Origin: a plasmid
Sequence record: NZ_CP064874.1
DNA length: 64,000 bases
Direction: 5' to 3' (one strand)
The notes beneath the pieces were generated by a model. It was not told the origin of the DNA and did not search any database. It saw only the letters and a list, made by a program, of their open reading frames with translations. The position numbers and the translations under genes are program-made. This document shows, piece by piece, positions 1,127 to 9,507 of the stretch; position 1 is the stretch's first letter, and each line of letters begins with the position of its first letter.

Positions 1127-1161
1127 GCCGGCACCGGGGGAGAGGGGCCCAGCGCTAGGGC

Positions 1162-1551
1162 GTGTTGATCAAGAAGGTGCGGGGTGGCCAGCCGCCGCGA
1201 GTTGCGCGGGAGAATGGGCGTGTGAAGATCCAGGTGCTGCATATCGAGGATTGCCCGAATTGGCAGGAGGCGGGCGATCGAGTACGGCTGGTGCTCGACT
1301 CGATCGGACGGGGCGATGTTCCGGTGGAGTTCGTGTTGATCCGCACCGAGGCTGAGGCGGTGAGCTCTGGTTTCGCGGGCTCGCCCACGATTCTTCTGGA
1401 CGGTCAGGACTTGTTCCCGTCCCAGGGGAACACTGCCGACTTGGCGTGCAGGGTCTATCTGACCGAGCGCGGCTTTGCGGGTGCGCCGACGGTGGGACAG
1501 CTTGAGCGCACGCTGCAGGAGCGCGAAGCGCTCAGCGGAGATCGGTCTTGA
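1162..1551 (+). CDS. thioredoxin/glutaredoxin-fold protein (passenger inside the IS5 element; true start may be GTG near 1222)
   Basis: IEDCPNW CxxC-like motif and GSPTILLDGQD, typical of the thioredoxin fold; lies wholly between the IS5 IRs. Confidence 0.4.
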   Translation: MLIKKVRGGQPPRVARENGRVKIQVLHIEDCPNWQEAGDRVRLVLDSIGRGDVPVEFVLIRTEAEAVSSGFAGSPTILLDGQDLFPSQGNTADLACRVYLTERGFAGAPTVGQLERTLQEREALSGDRS

Positions 1552-2284
1552 TCCAGATCAGCGCCGCGGCGAGGCTGACGGCGGCTCGGTAGTTGAGGGC
1601 GAGTTTGTCCGAGCGCATCGCGATGCCGCGCCACTGCTTGAGACGGTTGAAGCAGCGTTCTACGACGTTGCGTCCCTTGTAGCGTTCCTTCTGCTTGTCG
1701 CCGAAAGCGATCGGCCGGCCCGGCTTCTTGCGGCGGTGCGCGATCTGGTCGTCCCGCTCGGGGATGGTCGCCGCGATCCTCCGGTCGCGGAGCCAGGCGC
1801 GGTTCGCCCTTGAGGGGTACCCCTTGTCGGCGAGCACCCGGTCGGGGCGGGTGCGGGGGCGGCCCTTCCCGTCGCGGGGAACGCGGATGTTCTCCAGCAC
1901 CGCGCTCATCATCGTGGTGTCGTTGATGTTCCCGGCGGTGATCATCATGCTCAGCGGCCGGCCGCGGCCGTCGCAGACCAGGTGCAGTTTGGTCGTCAGC
2001 CCGCCGCGGGAGCGTCCGATCCCGTGATCAGGCGGCTCGGACCACGGATTCTTGTGATTCGGCACAGCCCCCTGTGTCCCGGGCGAGGGTCGCGCCGTGC
2101 TGATGCACGCGCGCGATCGTGGAGTCGATCGAGACGACCCAGTCGATTTCCCCAGCGGCGTCGGCCTGCTTCTGCACCTCGGTGAGCAGCTTCTGCCAGG
2201 TGCCGTCCCCGGCCCACCGGTTGAACCGCTTGTAGATCGAGTTCCACTTCCCGAACCGTTCCGGAACGTCACGCCACGGCGCAC
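1532..2284 (-). CDS. IS5 family transposase OrfB (DDE domain; expressed by -1 frameshift from orfA)
   Basis: GGLTTKLHLVCDGRGRPL...DKGYPSRANRAWLRDRRIAATIPERDDQ...NVVERCFNRLKQWRGIA; overlaps orfA in a different frame. Confidence 0.85.
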   Translation of the reverse strand: MRRGVTFRNGSGSGTRSTSGSTGGPGTAPGRSCSPRCRSRPTPLGKSTGSSRSTPRSRACISTARPSPGTQGAVPNHKNPWSEPPDHGIGRSRGGLTTKLHLVCDGRGRPLSMMITAGNINDTTMMSAVLENIRVPRDGKGRPRTRPDRVLADKGYPSRANRAWLRDRRIAATIPERDDQIAHRRKKPGRPIAFGDKQKERYKGRNVVERCFNRLKQWRGIAMRSDKLALNYRAAVSLAAALIWIKTDLR

Positions 2285-2417
2285 CGGTCCGGTACTTCCA
2301 CGCCATCCCCTCGATAGCGAGCCGGTGATCCGTCCACGGCCGCGACCGACCGGTCACCGTCGGCATCAACGGCTCCATCACGGCCCACACCTCGTCAGAG
2401 ATCTCCTGTCGCGTCAC
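2028..2417 (-). CDS. IS5 family transposase OrfA
   Basis: WRDVPERFGKWNSIYKRFNRWAGDGTW...HQHGATLARDTGG, the IS427-group orfA hallmark. Confidence 0.85.
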   Translation of the reverse strand: MTRQEISDEVWAVMEPLMPTVTGRSRPWTDHRLAIEGMAWKYRTGAPWRDVPERFGKWNSIYKRFNRWAGDGTWQKLLTEVQKQADAAGEIDWVVSIDSTIARVHQHGATLARDTGGCAESQESVVRAA

Positions 2418-2465
2418 CGTTCAAGACTCACCCACCGAGGAGCGGAACCTCTTGATCAACACGCC

Positions 2466-2861
2466 CTAGGCGGAGGCCTTCGCCTTGGCTTTCTCGATCT
2501 GATAAACCCGCTGCTTGCTGATCCCGAGTACGCGGCCGACGTCGGGGGCGGAGTACTTCTCGTTCCTGAGCGCGGTTACCACGGCGCGGCGACGCTCCGC
2601 GGCGCGGGCCTGAGCCCGACGCGCCTCAGCTTCGTCCTTCTCCGCCTGTGCCCACTCGTCGAGCAGCTGCTTAGGGGCGCGCACGTCGACGGTGACGGCC
2701 ACCTCGGCGGGGTCGACGTTGAGCCACATCGCAGCGACACCCTGGGCCTCGCGATCTACCTCGTCGAGAGAGGCTGCCTGCCCTCCGGTGCCGAGTTCGG
2801 GGATCTCGAACACCCACCAACGGCCTTCGCGCTCGACGCTGACGGCGAATGTCTGTGTCAT
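2466..2861 (-). CDS. hicB: HicB family antitoxin
   Basis: MTQTFAVSVEREGRWWVFEIPELGTGGQ (UPF0150 fold) plus a C-terminal HTH (RVLGISKQRVYQIEKA); directly downstream of hicA. Confidence 0.75.
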   Translation of the reverse strand: MTQTFAVSVEREGRWWVFEIPELGTGGQAASLDEVDREAQGVAAMWLNVDPAEVAVTVDVRAPKQLLDEWAQAEKDEAEARRAQARAAERRRAVVTALRNEKYSAPDVGRVLGISKQRVYQIEKAKAKASA

Positions 2862-2874
2862 CGCGTCCTCCCTC

Positions 2875-3084
2875 TCACTTCCAGGCCTGGGGGAGTGTCG
2901 CCCCGGCCCTCTCGATCTGTCGCAGCACGCCCGCTGAGACTTCCTTGTGCCCTGCCGGGATCGAGGCTTTCTGCGACTCGTCGGGCAGGCCCCATAGTTC
3001 GTGGCTACCCTGACCATCGCGCAGATAGACCCAGCCGATGCTCTTCAGGTGCTTCAGCACGTCTCGCGTTCGCTGTGCTTTCAT
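2875..3084 (-). CDS. hicA: HicA family toxin (mRNA interferase)
   Basis: 69-aa MKAQRTRDVLKHLKSIGWVYLRDGQGSHELWG, the YcfA/HicA signature; ATGA overlap with the upstream gene. Confidence 0.75.
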   Translation of the reverse strand: MKAQRTRDVLKHLKSIGWVYLRDGQGSHELWGLPDESQKASIPAGHKEVSAGVLRQIERAGATLPQAWK

Positions 3085-3789: not shown

Positions 3790-4930
3790 GAGAGTCAATA
3801 TTGAGGGTTGCGCTATTCGCAAGCACGCGTCGATCCGCTCATGCCTTTGAGCGACAGCTAGCTGTATGAGGCCATGACGTTGCTGACTCGCGTCGGTGTC
3901 GCAGAGGCGGGCGGTTGCCCGTCGTGAGCGCCGTGGGGACGGTGATAGTTGTAGTGCCGGTTCCACACTTCGAGCGCGGCAGCGCGTTCGGCTTCTGAGC
4001 GCCAGATGCGCGCGTAAAGAAACTCTTCGGCGAGGATCCGGTTGTAGCGCTCGACTTTGCCGTTGTGTCGAGGCGTGTATGGCGTGATGCGCTGGTGTCG
4101 ACTGTTCCCGACTGCGTCGTGGAAAGCTGCGGATCGGTAGCAGGAACCGTTGTCGGTCACGACCCGCTCGATCCCGGCGATGCCGTGCTTGGCGAACCAA
4201 GCTCTTGCACGTCCGAGGAACGCGACGGCAGTGGCGGCTTTCTCGTCCGGCAACGCTTCGGTGTACGCGAGTCGGGTGTGCCCGTCGATGGCCGAATGCA
4301 GGTAGACGTACCCAGTCTTCGTACCCCGGGTCTTCTGACGTGCGACAGCTTTGGCTTTCTCGCTGCCTTTGCCGTGCACACGCCACCCGCCGCCATCAGG
4401 GATACGACCGACCTTCTTCACGTCCAGGTGCACCATGTGGCCGGGACGTTTGGTGGTGATGCGTTGCGGTTCCCGATTCAACTCGCCGTTGGGGTCAATA
4501 TACTTGCGCTGGTTCAGGCCCAGCTGCGCGAGGAGCCGGGTGATGGTGCGACGACTGACCGGTGTTCCTGCTTGCTCGAGCTCGAATGCGATACGGGACG
4601 CTGGCCATTTCTGTTCTCGTCGCATTGACTCGATCTGCTCCACGAGGCGGCCAGGCGTTGCAGATGGTTGACGGATCGGCGACGACGAGCGGTCCTGTAG
4701 ACCGAGCTTCCCGAATCGTTTGTATCTGTTGACCCATTTCGAGGCGGTCGCGCGGGAGATCCCCATCTCTGCGGCAACATGAGAAATAGGTCGAGTCCGA
4801 CAGCGCGCGACGAGTCGACGACGACCTTCGACCGTCAGTGGCGAATTTGCGTGCGTCACTTGACCACCTCGCTCTCGACGGGTGCAATCAGCCGAATAAG
4901 CGGAACTGCGAGCAGCAGTGCCGTGGTGGT
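3790..4930 (-). mobile_element. IS481 family IS (boundaries approximate)
   Basis: Transposase 3858..4858. The start codon abuts the MFS gene stop at 4856, so the IS terminus probably lies inside the 3' end of the MFS gene. Confidence 0.5.
3858..4858 (-). CDS. IS481 family transposase
   Basis: GTG-start VTHANSPLTVEGRRRLV... (typical IS481 THANARLT N-terminus) followed by the rve integrase core HLDVKKVGRIPDGGGWR...DNGSCYRS...PYTPRHNGKVER. Confidence 0.85.
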
Positions 4931-6037
4931 CGCGAGCGCGGCTACCCAAACGGGTCCGAGCGCGCCCGGCATGACGCTGAGTGCGGCGGAGGCGAGCACG
5001 GGACCGGCGGCCGCGCCAACGTTGAGTGCCGCTGTCGCGTATGACCCTGCCATGGTGGGTGCACTCGCCGCGGCATAGAGCACTCGTGTGATCAGCGTGC
5101 TCCCGACGGCGAACCCCACCACACCCTGAGTGAATACGAGCCCGAGCAGGGCAACGGGGTTCGTTGCAAAGAGGGCCAGCGCGACCCACCCGAGCACCAG
5201 AACGCTGCCACCACCGACGATGACGATCCTGGGTCGGGCATCCGAGAGTCGTCCCGCAACGGTGACGCCGATGAAGGAGCCGACGCCGAAGAGCACAAGG
5301 GCCAGCGGTACCCACCACTGGCTCAGGCCGGCGGTGTCCGTAACGATCGGCGCGAGATAGGTGAGCGTGGCGAAGGTGCCGGCATTCACCAGGGCAGCGA
5401 GCAGCATCGTTAGAACGAGGCGCGGCGAGGACAGCTGCGCCAGTTCCACACGCAGCGAGGTCGAGGACGACTCCTCCCTTGACGAGTCGTGAACTTGAGT
5501 GTTGAAGCCCGCGGCAATGCCGATCGCAGCGGGGACGCAGAGAAGAGCGATCGCCCAGAACGTCGACTGCCAGCCGAGTGCCGTTCCAAGCAGTGCACCG
5601 GCGGGGACGCCGGCGACGGTGGCGACGGTGGTACCCGCCAGCAGAACCGCCACGGCCCGCCCTTTGGCATCGGGTGCTACGAGTCTCGTCGCCGCACCCA
5701 AAGCGACCGCCAGGAAGCCTGCATTCACGATCGCCGCGATCACGCGCGTGATGAACAGAACCGTGAAATCCGGCGTAAGTGCCCCGACGACGTGGGATAG
5801 CGCGAATACGATCGCGCAACCCAGGAGTGTCGCCTTCACGGGGAGGTGACGAGTGAGCGCGGCCATCGCCGGTGCACCGATCACCATCCCTGCGGCGAAC
5901 GCCGATGTCAGGAGACCAGCGGTCCCCACGGAAACGCTGAAGTATGTGGAGATGTCGGGCACGAGGCCGGCGAGCATGAATTCGGAAGTACCCATGGCGA
6001 AGACCACCAGGGCAAGAAGATAGAGAGCGAAAGGCAT
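4856..6037 (-). CDS. MFS efflux transporter, Cmx/CmrA-like (chloramphenicol exporter family)
   Basis: MPFALYLLALVVFAMGTSEFMLAGL... with 12 predicted TM helices. Recalled similarity to corynebacterial Cmx. The C-terminus abuts the IS481 insertion. Confidence 0.7.
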   Translation of the reverse strand: MPFALYLLALVVFAMGTSEFMLAGLVPDISTYFSVSVGTAGLLTSAFAAGMVIGAPAMAALTRHLPVKATLLGCAIVFALSHVVGALTPDFTVLFITRVIAAIVNAGFLAVALGAATRLVAPDAKGRAVAVLLAGTTVATVAGVPAGALLGTALGWQSTFWAIALLCVPAAIGIAAGFNTQVHDSSREESSSTSLRVELAQLSSPRLVLTMLLAALVNAGTFATLTYLAPIVTDTAGLSQWWVPLALVLFGVGSFIGVTVAGRLSDARPRIVIVGGGSVLVLGWVALALFATNPVALLGLVFTQGVVGFAVGSTLITRVLYAAASAPTMAGSYATAALNVGAAAGPVLASAALSVMPGALGPVWVAALATTTALLLAVPLIRLIAPVESEVVK

Positions 6038-6604
6038 CGAGATAGCTCCGAAGCGAGAGTACGAACAAGAGAACGTCTCGTCACCACGGTCAGCGCCCAG
6101 AGGGCACCCGGATGCCGTGCTGCGCGCAGCACTGGGCAACAGAGAGCTAAGGGCTCAGCGGAGGTGAGGGGCTGACGGCGTGACCGAAAGCCCCTGAGTG
6201 TCCGATTCAGGGCTCGACATACCGCTCACCTTACCTGGCTGCGCCGCCAGCCCCAAGAAGTGTCAACAACCTCCTGGCCAGCAACAGCTAGCAGATCGTC
6301 GTCCGCCGAGTGTGGTGGGCTTGTACCTCTCCTCTGTTGCGGAGATCTCCGGGCAGGCGCGTCCCGCTGACGAGAGCCACAAACTCCAGGCGGAGTCTCT
6401 TCGGTGGTTGCTCTGATCACGTCGTTCGATACACTCGGAATGTGCATTTGTACTTCCTGTGACGGCTGAGTAAGGCCTACCGCGCTCGTTGAGTCATCCG
6501 AGCCTGCGGCGGCCGCTCGTTCTCGACCCTGCACGGGTCGCCGTCACCTTGCGCACCCTCGCACGCTTCATAGCCGTGCGGTGCGTCGTTTCCGAAGGAT
6601 ACGA

Positions 6605-8245
6605 ATGCTCTCCCTCAACACCCCTCTACCAGCGCGCCATCGCGCGCAGCTCATCGCCTCCGACGTCTCCGTAACGCGCGGAGCCACCCCCGTCCTCAGC
6701 CACGTCGACCTCACGGTCACGGCCACCTCGCGAGTAGCGATCGTGGGCGAGAACGGCCGGGGGAAGTCGACGCTCCTGCACGTCCTCAGCGGCGCTCTCA
6801 CCCCGGACAGCGGAGTAGTGCAGCGACTCGGGACGGTCGGCATAGCCGAACAAGAGATGCCGACCGGCGGCAACCGCACAGTGGGCCAGGCGGTCGCGGA
6901 AGCGATCGCGCAGCCGCTCGCCGCCGTTGCGGCCCTCGATTCGGCCGCGGTGTCACTCGCCGCAGGCGTCCCCGGCGCCGAAGAACGATACGCCGCCGCA
7001 TTGGAACACGCCGAAGTCCTCGATGCGTGGGATGCCGAACGGCGGGTGCAGATCGCGTTGGAAGCACTCGACGCCGAAACGGAGCCATCCCGGCGCCTGG
7101 ACGACCTCTCCGTCGGGCAGCGCTATCGAGTCCGTCTGGCGTGCCTGCTCGGCGCCGACGACGATTTCCTGCTCCTCGACGAACCCACAAATCACCTCGA
7201 TCGAAGCGGCCTCGAGTTTCTGACCACGCAACTGCGGTCGCGAAACGGCGGCGTGGTCGTCGTCACCCATGATCGCGCGCTGCTCTCCGACGTCGCGGAG
7301 ACGATCGTGGACCTCGACCCGACCCCGGATGACCGGGTGCGCGTGTACGGCAACGGTTATGCCGGCTACCGCGAGGGCCGGCGCGCCGAGCGCGAACGGT
7401 GGGAGCACGAATTCGAGCGACAGCAGACCGAGCTCGCGCGGCTGCAGGACAGTCTCAGCTCGGCGCAGAACCGACTCGTCTCGGGGTGGCGACCAGAGAA
7501 GGGAACCAACAAGCACGGACGGGCCACGCGCGCGGGCGGGCTCGTGCAGAGCGTGCATCGCCGGCAGGAGCAACTCGAAGCGCACGCGGTGACTGTTCCC
7601 GAGCCGCCGCAAGTGTTTCGCTTCCCGGAGCTTGCGACCCGAACCGGAGCGGTGCTGTTGAGCGTGGAGGACGTGACCGTGACCGGCAGGCTTACGCGCC
7701 CGGCGGCGTTCTCTCTGTCACACCGCGGGCGTCTCGTAGTGACCGGACCCAACGGGGCCGGCAAGTCCACACTGCTGAGCGTCGCAGCGGGAGACCTCCG
7801 CCCGGACACCGGCACCGTTCGTCGCCCGCAGAACGTGCGGCTCGCTTTTCTGCGCCAAGAGTCGGAGCTGCCGCTGGATCGTCGCGCGAGCGAGTTCTAC
7901 GCAGCCCACGTCGACGCGCTCGTTCCATCGCGTGAGGCAGTCGGTCTCTCGCAGCTCGGGCTCCTGCGCGCCCGCGAATCGAGCAAGCGGATAGGTGAGC
8001 TGTCGATGGGCCAGCAACGGCGCCTCGAGCTGGCCCTGGTGCTCGCCACCAAGCCGCACGTGCTCTTGCTCGACGAACCGACCAACCACCTATCGATCGC
8101 GCTCGTCGACGAACTGACCGACGCGCTCAACGCCACCCAAGCGGCTGTTGTCGTATCCACCCACGACCGGCAGCTTCTCCGCGACGTCGAAGGCTGGCCG
8201 GCACTGCAACTGGAAGCTACGACCGAAAGCGAGGCGCTCGTATGA
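6605..8245 (+). CDS. ABC-F family ATPase (tandem ABC domains, no TMD; ARE-like)
   Basis: Two Walker A sites ([18 protein letters not shown]), two signature motifs ([16 protein letters not shown]) and two Walker B sites ([10 protein letters not shown]). RBS GAAGGA lies 8 nt upstream of ATG 6605. Confidence 0.8.
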
Positions 8246-9507
8246 CCCGCGAGACTCCCGACCGGCTGCGGGCGCTGCGCCCTCTCGCTACCCGCGACTA
8301 CCGGCTGCTGTTCGCGGCCGTCGGTATCGAAGTCTTCGGCACCGGCATGTGGACCATCGTCATGGTGTTTCAGGTGCTCGCACTCGACGACAGCCCCCTT
8401 GCCCTGTCAGCCGTCGCTACCGGGCTCAGCCTCGGCCTCTTCGCTTTCTCGGTCCTCGGCGGGGTGGTAGCCGATCGCTTCTCGAAGCGGCGGATCATCA
8501 TCACCGTGCAGGGACTCACCGCGGCGGTCATGGCCGCCGTCGCGGTGCTGTCCCTCACGGGCGCGATCGAGTTGTGGCATGTCGGGCTCGCCTCGTTCGC
8601 CATGGGCGCGGGTAGTGCGTTCTTCTACCCGGCCTACAGCGCCTACCTCCCCCAAGTACTACCGCCCGAACAACTGCTCGCCGCAAACGGGCTCGAAGGG
8701 GCTCTCCGGCCCTCGATGGGGCAGGGCCTCGGACCCGCCCTCGGAGGGATCATCGTCGGGGCGTTCTTCCCCGCCATCGGAGCGGTCATCGTCGCCGCGT
8801 CCTACGCAGTCGCGTTCGTCATCACACTGTTCCTCAGCCGCCGGGAGGAAACCACCGAACCGGAACAGTCGCAGCAACGCACGAGCGTGTGGGGCGACCT
8901 CAAAGCCGGGGTCCGCTACGTCGCCCGCACCCGCTGGCTGCTATGGACCCTGATCTTCGGATCATCCCTCGCGCTCATCATCCAGGGCCCAATCGAGGTA
9001 CTTCTCCCCTTCCTCACCCGCGACCGATTCGACGACGCCGAAGCAACGTTCGGACTACTACTCGCCGCCTACGGAATCGGAGGCGCCATCGGATCGCTCA
9101 TCGTGTCGTCACTCAAACTGCCCCGGCGATACCTGACACTGATGATCGGCCTCTGGGGCGGCGGTACCCTCCCGCTCGTGCGCATCGGCCTCGCCAACAA
9201 CCTAATAGTGATGCTCGCCACACTGTTCGCGGTCGGAGCTGCCACAGGAGCCGGCGTGGTGATCTGGGGCACACTGCTTCAACGCCTCGTGCCACCCGAA
9301 ATGATCGGCCGTGTCGCCAGTCTCGACTTCTTCGTCTCCATCGCGTTCATGCCCGTCTCGATCGCCATCGCCGGGCCCCTATCGCTGATCGTGCCGATAC
9401 CAGCCATCTTCATCGTGGCCGGCGTCGCGCCGACGCTGCTCGCCATCGTCGCGCTTCTAGCCGGACGCATGCGGGACGTCGAGACGAGACACCCCCTGGA
9501 CACTTGA
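8242..9507 (+). CDS. MFS efflux transporter (EntS/macrolide-efflux-like)
   Basis: 12-TM profile; ATGA start/stop overlap with the ABC-F gene implies an operon. Confidence 0.75.

Follow-up and report, generated by a model that had tools for sequence, protein, structure and literature searches.

A probable transporter insertion sequence of the IS427 type with a DF-family thioredoxin-fold cargo gene on plasmid NZ_CP064874.1

The plasmid of sequence record NZ_CP064874.1 carries, at positions 1155–2469 of the 64,000-nt stretch analysed here (hereafter the window, whose numbering is used for all coordinates), a transposase and a small thioredoxin-like gene enclosed together by matching inverted repeats. 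The question raised by this locus is whether these parts form a single mobile element that has taken up a gene unrelated to transposition, or whether the gene is only trapped between the remains of separate insertions. The region 1158–2466 is very probably an intact transporter insertion sequence (tIS), that is, an insertion sequence (IS) that carries a transposition-unrelated gene inside its repeats; it would belong to the IS427 type of the IS5 family, and its cargo, a gene of the DF family, would have been captured long ago, retained under selection and recently spread.

The segment 1155–2469 is one intact unit of 1315 bp bounded by inverted repeats, as the earlier note on this DNA had proposed, and its core is located at 1158–2466 (1309 bp, GGGCGTG...CACGCCC). 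The two arms (1155–1181 and 2443–2469) are 27 nt long with a complementarity of 89%, and their outer 20 nt, CTAGGGCGTGTTGATCAAGA, match at 20 of 20 positions when the flanking CTA is counted; this sequence is present at only these two places in the window, with a chance expectation of 0. The transposase-distal terminal inverted repeat, which is on the left in the window copy (1158–1181, plus strand; inverted repeat right, IRR, by the ISfinder convention), is conserved in all the copies described below and pairs with the transposase-proximal repeat (2443–2466, minus strand; inverted repeat left, IRL). The core is flanked by a TA target-site duplication, with the left copy at 1156–1157, inside the CTAG at 1155–1158, and the right copy at 2467–2468, where the CTA at 2466–2468 is also the TAG stop codon of a minus-strand neighbour gene (2466–3017). 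The arrangement C-TA-[GGGCGTG...CACGCCC]-TA-G is found at nearly all readable full-copy sites, with CTAG-like targets at at least 10 sites; a single exceptional site, CCCC-TA-[IS]-TA-CGAACC, is compatible with a 2-bp TA or a 3-bp CTA duplication and incompatible with a 4-bp CTAG duplication, and for this reason the core is set at 1158–2466.

The transposase occupies two frames of the minus strand (1532–2417): orfA (2417 to 2028) matches DUF4096 (Pfam PF13340, E = 7e-26) and the orfB frame (2284 to 1532) matches DDE_Tnp_1 (PF01609, E = 1e-23), the two overlapping at 2284–2028. In the IS427-type group, as defined in ISfinder, the transposase is generally produced from two overlapping frames through a programmed frameshift. 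In the RefSeq annotation of a Microbacterium plasmid (M. sediminis), the counterpart is an "IS5 family transposase" of 847 nt, equivalent to 1532–2378 with a frameshift; this length is not a multiple of 3 and therefore implies a frameshift join. The putative programmed −1 frameshift region is likely at 2060–2085 of the minus strand (...ACAGGGGGCTG..., with a run of five G at 2068–2072), within the orfA/orfB overlap, and the slip site is inferred; the stretch CCCCCTGTGTCCCGGG is identical in a second, shorter IS of the same group in the window (13362–14309), despite an overall DNA identity of 63–73%. The repeats (GGGCGTGTTGATCAAGA...) start with GG, in agreement with membership of the IS427-type group, whose elements have short repeats of this kind and duplicate 2–4 bp of target, and on the basis of the transposase domains, the two-frame layout, the repeats and the target duplication the element can be assigned to the IS5 family, IS427 type. 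The window copy has a private A at 1596, where 18 of 18 other near-identical copies have C, changing DKLARNY to DKLALNY in the transposase; the shorter IS has L at the matching residue and the change is probably tolerated.

An additional open reading frame (ORF) is indeed located between one repeat and the 3' end of the transposase, as had been noticed from the sequence. The extra segment, previously estimated at about 380 bp, is real and measures 368 bp (1174–1541, plus strand), since its limits are defined by the junction in truly empty relatives. In five of these (L052, L054, L055, L056, and L057) the 19-nt repeat CTAGGSCGTGTTGATCAAG is followed directly by the backbone TCGGTCTTGATCCAGATCAG; in the window, ...ATCAAG is followed by AAGGTGCGG, the cargo and AGCGGAGA, and only then by TCGGTCTTGATCCAGATCAG, the backbone (TCGG...) resuming at 1542. 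The segment, with the transposase stop on one side and the distal repeat on the other, is missing from the closest cargo-free relatives, which lie on actinobacterial plasmids of Microbacterium sp. NIBRBAC000506063 (87% DNA identity), Leifsonia shinshuensis (85%), Paenarthrobacter (P. ureafaciens, 82%), Rhodococcus (sp. USK13, 80%), and Frondihabitans (71%). These relatives (about 70–87% identity) are about 941 bp each, and align to positions 388–1315 of the 1315-bp query only; both repeats are present, and those that are annotated have a transposase coding sequence (CDS). The cargo-free IS427-type elements of Actinomycetota thus share with the window element 80–87% DNA identity over the transposase module, the repeats, the CTAG flanks and the two-frame transposase; they differ in the absence of the 368-bp cargo and in a transposase that ends ...IWIKTDLINTA, reading through the distal repeat to the TAG of the terminal CTAG, whereas that of the window ends ...IWIKTDLR.

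The core also exceeds the length of the IS427-type group (about 800–1000 bp), and the excess corresponds exactly to the 368-bp cargo; due to this correspondence the element is considered a tIS and not a plain IS. The empty form appears to be the ancestral state, because more distant relatives (the shorter IS in the window and L057) are cargo-free. The stretch that separates the transposase stop from the distal repeat is the sole dispensable place in so compact an IS, and the cargo would have entered there, displacing the last transposase codons; the last three codons and the stop of the cargo gene are in fact supplied by the IS backbone, so that the cargo ORF would have borrowed its end from the element, its native C-terminus and stop having been lost at capture.

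Copies in other genomes were collected by a protein search with the cargo, by locus look-ups and by a scan of one genome per species. The protein search returned near-identical proteins with many member sequences, and the complete 1315-bp unit was found elsewhere at 98.9–99.9% DNA identity with flanks that differ by site. Different flanks surround the complete unit in L001-3/L008, L006, L011, L012, L010/L015, L017, L018/L021, and L019, and further distinct flanks are visible at one end in L004, L023, L033, L034, and L035; in total, no fewer than 12 insertion sites or ends can be told apart, in four or more genera, and the insertion contexts are mutually unrelated. Among the hosts are more than 10 species of Microbacterium, an Arachnia metagenome-assembled genome (MAG), Curtobacterium citri, and Curtobacterium sp. 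1P10AnD, which has three copies; the copy of Janibacter hoylei is truncated, and a further copy is carried by the M. sediminis plasmid NZ_CP038257.1. Stand-alone contigs of 1315–1317 bp (L009, L014, and L016) show the pattern typical of collapsed repeats. A single transposase, both ends fixed and the same cargo boundaries characterize all copies and variants; a composite transposon and a one-ended mobilisation (TMo/ISCR-like) are excluded by these features. A transposition-unrelated gene lies inside the repeats of a unit found at many sites, which agrees with the suggestion of a tIS made in the earlier note, and the element appears to transpose as one unit, cargo included.

Some of these copies have particular surroundings. 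In L053 (4524–8790, NZ_CP038257.1) the tIS is located between two inverted IS110-family elements of about 1.45 kb (arms 4595–5975 and 7338–8718, 93% complementary), which symmetrically abut its termini (..ATATCA next to GGGCGTG.. and ..CACGCCC next to TGATAT..); it looks as if the terminal CTAG of the tIS serves as a target for this IS110-type element. In L019 (3934–6559, contig_2 of Curtobacterium sp. 1P10AnD) a head-to-tail tandem dimer of the tIS with one CTAG at the junction (..CACGCC CTAG GGCGTG..) may have arisen in transposition, as an intermediate or a product, or may be an artefact of assembly. The identical actinobacterial tIS is also present on contigs of 1.4–1.6 kb binned as Bacteroidota (L010, a MAG labelled Proteiniphilum) and as Planctomycetota (L017, a MAG labelled Gemmata), a placement most likely due to binning error rather than to cross-phylum transfer.

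Diverged variants of the element allow the capture to be dated in relative terms. Variant L005 has an overall DNA identity of 95% to the window element, with 88% identity in the cargo protein and 92% in OrfB; in L043-45 the corresponding values are 85%, 80%, and 83–87%, and in L046 they are 78%, 72%, and 77%. All share the order of repeat, cargo and convergent transposase, and L005, L045, and L046 also have the outer repeat. The junction between cargo and backbone is the same in L005, L043-45, and L046 and also in L036 and L049, in which little or nothing of the transposase is left. The latter two were considered as possible donor loci of the cargo and rejected, as the IS-derived TCGGTCTCGATCCAGATC... 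downstream of the gene identifies them as tIS relics. Since one junction is common to variants diverged to 72–80% protein identity, the capture appears to be old, contrary to the recent capture suggested earlier, and only the spread of the window variant between genera would be recent. Two JGI contigs (P0008 and P0010) encode cargo homologues of about 70% identity whose tail, ...TRGRS, resembles the backbone-encoded ..DRS or ..DRY; they cluster with variant C (80% bootstrap) and are probably additional tIS variants.

The cargo has been held under purifying selection during the diversification of the element: the ratio of nonsynonymous to synonymous substitution rates (dN/dS) among variants is 0.14–0.21 with dS up to 0.8, and neither the window copy nor any of the 18 others examined has a damaged ORF, Shine-Dalgarno (SD) sequence or start codon, one sublineage having a GTG-to-ATG change. 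In a neighbour-joining (NJ) tree the tIS-borne DF proteins are placed together, apart from the chromosomal ones, with weak bootstrap support; the chromosomal DF homologues (at most 75% identity) have neither a transposase nor an IS-derived junction. A single ancient capture from a chromosomal gene of Microbacteriaceae would account for this distribution.

The cargo gene (1222–1551, plus strand) encodes a protein of 109 aa with Cys11 in DCPNW and Cys76 in LACRVY; the identical product is recorded in RefSeq as WP_026095586.1, "hypothetical protein". Its start is placed at the GTG at 1222 and not at 1162; the Curtobacterium copies, like variants B and C, have ATG at this position. The SD-like GGGAGAA at 1208–1214 lies 7 nt upstream, and GAGAATG is invariant among the tIS-borne copies plus one chromosomal homologue. 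No Pfam family matched the protein at E ≤ 0.01, and the only NCBIfam match was NF049942, "DF family (seleno)protein", over profile positions 1–93 of 96 (E = 8e-18, 64.2 bits versus a curated cut-off of 70). Residues invariant across 54 homologues are C11 (in D-C-P-N-W), G53-S-P-T56, G61, D63, L74, C76-R77, and P89.

The structural evidence supports a thioredoxin fold. AlphaFold2, provided with the homologue alignment, predicted the order beta1, alpha1, beta2, alpha2, beta3, beta4/4', alpha3 with a mean predicted local distance difference test (pLDDT) score of 89.9; the best Foldseek matches in the PDB were thioredoxins, SelW/Rdx-like proteins and MtH895 (probability about 1, template modelling (TM) scores 0.5–0.7), and a profile search of PDB sequences returned thioredoxin 1fo5 (E = 1.4e-3). 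In the model Cys11 occupies the classical position of the thioredoxin active site, where helix 1 begins. The description of the ORF as a CxxC thioredoxin-like protein is thus upheld for the fold and not for the motif: the cargo has no CxxC but C-P-N-W, the fourth position being W, S or T in the aligned homologues and never C, and a second invariant Cys (Cys76, in L-A-C-R) is found 65 residues downstream of Cys11 and is likely its partner. The proteins of the Thioredoxin_3/MtH895 type and SelW/Rdx resemble it in the predicted fold, in a Cys at the N-terminal end of helix 1 and in an SPT loop of the cis-Pro type; unlike them, the cargo has neither CxxC nor CxxU, its second Cys being in a conserved insert (DG-D-FP...LACRVY), and the best PDB E-value, 1.4e-3, is marginal.

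Chromosomal DF homologues occur in two contexts: as the last gene of an ArsR/P-type ATPase operon, with a 4-bp gene overlap, in which case the operon adjoins an ars cluster whose genes include those for thioredoxin and its reductase, and with an FMN reductase on one side and a hydrolase-OsmC fusion on the other. Together with the fold, this neighbourhood suggests that the cargo may act in thiol-redox or metal(loid)-stress handling to the benefit of the host, and such a benefit would favour retention of the element. In the element the gene is convergent with the transposase, whose 3' end it overlaps by 20 bp in the window (1532–1551); a 3' overlap of 8–20 bp is conserved among the variants.

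Several points weigh against the interpretation of the locus as a tIS with an old, selected and host-beneficial cargo. The scan for promoters and terminators in 1050–2600 found no sigma-70-like promoter for the cargo, which is why its expression would probably depend on read-in transcription or on an unrecognised actinobacterial promoter. The redox or metal role is drawn from fold and neighbourhood only, and the score on which the DF assignment depends is lower than the NCBI curated cut-off. Mobility is deduced from the multiplicity of sites and not from transposition events; no uninterrupted target of the copZ-adjacent insertion was found in JGI metagenomes (gapped pattern) or in plasmids (megablast), and as no pre-insertion site was recovered the duplication is given as TA or CTA. 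Lastly, in an NJ tree of 594 nt of the transposase the cargo-bearing and empty elements interleave, with bootstraps of 6–42% at the relevant nodes, the better-supported nodes being A+L005 (100%) and A with the element carrying a DUF6226 gene described below (80%); a single capture therefore requires a later loss of cargo or a recombinational transfer of modules, unless the tree simply lacks resolution.

Different explanations of the locus were weighed against these data. The segment might not be one element at all, the repeat at 1155–1177 being a solo remnant of another insertion, the true end of an IS of about 940 bp having degraded near 1540 and the gene having been trapped between the two. 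The stop of the transposase at 1532 and the shorter IS, from which canonical relatives can be seen to measure about 940 bp, are in line with this scenario, indicated in advance as the one that could overturn the tIS proposal; however, it is hardly credible, as the 20-nt tips match perfectly and diverge from those of the shorter IS after nt 11, and the complete unit with both ends and cargo, present with different flanks at at least 12 sites, refutes it. Moreover, no degraded inner repeat exists near 1540: ..AGCGGAGA before TCGG... has no similarity to the repeat, whereas in the empty relatives the repeat abuts TCGGTCTTGATCC. It could also be argued that the cargo is neutral, a fragment of a gene that hitch-hikes, unexpressed and without benefit to host or element, in a successful IS lineage in which it became fixed by chance; the failure to recognise a promoter, the loss of the native end of the gene at capture and the unrelated insertion contexts are what it would predict, but a dN/dS of 0.14–0.21 at dS up to 0.8, the conservation of all family-invariant residues and the intact ORF, SD and start codon in the window and 18 other copies, with GTG replaced by ATG in one sublineage, make it highly improbable.

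A function of the cargo for the element itself, as a thiol protein that regulates or assists transposition (e.g., by redox coupling) or as an antisense brake through the convergent transcript, is improbable as well, even if it would account for the convergent orientation with its conserved 8–20-bp overlap, for the purifying selection and retention in all variants, and for the fact that read-in from outside, in a gene devoid of its own promoter, would run antisense to the transposase. The relatives of 70–87% identity that have no such gene appear complete, and the gene is therefore not needed by this type of transposase; the chromosomal homologues are found in metal and redox operons unrelated to transposition, and in a sibling element this slot is occupied by an unrelated gene that points the other way. 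An intact IS427-type tIS whose cargo serves the host is the explanation retained here.

This sibling, carried by plasmid pMspBDGP8A of Microbacterium sp. BDGP8 (NZ_CP120713.1, 39073–40727; L051 777–2431), has a transposase backbone 87–88% identical to that of the window element, and its cargo occupies the same slot, bounded by the distal repeat and the 3' end of the transposase. It differs in that its cargo, a DUF6226 gene of 224 aa, is unrelated and co-directional with the transposase, reading out through the repeat. Together with its metagenome relatives (L069 and L070-L072) it is found with three different flanks at 85–90% identity, and for this reason the sibling also appears to be a mobile tIS. 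A more speculative and rather unlikely extension is that the slot is reusable in the IS427-type lineage, unrelated genes being swapped by recombination between variants, with the DF cargo, transcribed only by read-in, doubling as an antisense brake. Such swapping would explain the interleaving of cargo-bearing and empty elements in the transposase tree; if this were true, the element would be a minimal gene-shuttling platform with an activity dependent on the insertion context.

The shorter IS of the window (13362–14309, minus strand, 948 bp including the CTAG at both ends) had been regarded as the canonical copy of the long element with the same outer repeat. It does belong to the same group and is cargo-free, but only the first 11 nt of the repeat are common to the two, and the alignment gives 63–73% DNA identity; it has its own repeats (CTAGGGCGTGTCTCTTAAAG and CTAGGGCGTGTCTCCCAAAGG), and its transposase ORF ends at the stop in the terminal CTAG. 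It is thus a different IS species and not the empty or canonical form of the long element. Its target is palindromic (GAAGGCGA-CTAG ... CTAG-TCGCTTTC), forming with the flanks a 36-nt inverted repeat (13354–13389 and 14282–14317).

The proximity of this IS to an nrdH-like gene, to which attention had been drawn, is real: an nrdH/glutaredoxin-like ORF with a CVQC motif (13012–13317, minus strand; NCBIfam E = 1e-18, score below the curated cut-offs) is located 45 bp outside it. A link with the cargo did not hold, as the ORF is outside the IS and there is no significant similarity between the two genes, and given this lack of homology a redox gene capture in progress was rejected; the adjacency is treated as a coincidence. 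The IS, 45 bp upstream of the nrdH-like gene and co-oriented with it, may affect its expression.

As for the surroundings of the long element, the insertion is 23 bp past the end of an ISL3-family element, whose end is near 1131 and whose transposase, apparent directly from the sequence, would be encoded at 1–1098. On the other side it falls exactly on the stop codon of the minus-strand gene at 2466–3017 (183 aa); this stop is preserved because TA is duplicated, the tIS insertion reusing the TAG. The gene overlaps a HicA-toxin gene (2875–3084, Pfam), the position expected for a HicB antitoxin, and its sole Pfam matches are weak helix-turn-helix domains under the cut-off. The neighbourhood is rich in mobile DNA: an IS481-like integrase domain is contained in a long ORF (3858–6068) and a tyrosine recombinase is encoded at 11773–12990, both recognised from translations only.

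The tIS is a recognised ISfinder category with members in several families (PMC9330008, PMC10132070, PMC7986276); known examples are ISKpn21, ISKpn65, and ISRel10 of the IS1202 family and ISDsp3 of the IS6 family (PMC10132070, PMC7986276, PMC9330008). These are IS-sized, with one transposase, terminal repeats and one internal ORF unrelated to transposition, often of unknown function, and the window element is a further example of this class rather than a new type of element. It differs in belonging to the IS5 family, IS427 type, and in a DF thioredoxin-fold cargo that is convergent with the transposase and overlaps it; in addition, ISDsp3 is single-copy, whereas the window element is present in multiple copies across genera. 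No description of this element, of any IS427-type tIS or of a DF-family cargo was found in the searched literature, in which the ISfinder entries themselves were not included.

The locus is a further, well-documented instance in which an element the size of an IS would spread a host-type gene between genera, and provides an unusually complete comparative series of empty relatives with the exact junction, diverged cargo variants, decayed relics and a sibling with a different gene in the slot. It also explains the recurrence of the "hypothetical protein" WP_026095586.1 beside IS5 transposases. Finally, it hints at what the uncharacterised thioredoxin-fold DF family may do in the cell: as a mobile copy appears to be under purifying selection and chromosomal copies are found in metal and redox operons, DF is a reasonable target for stress-phenotype tests in Microbacteriaceae.

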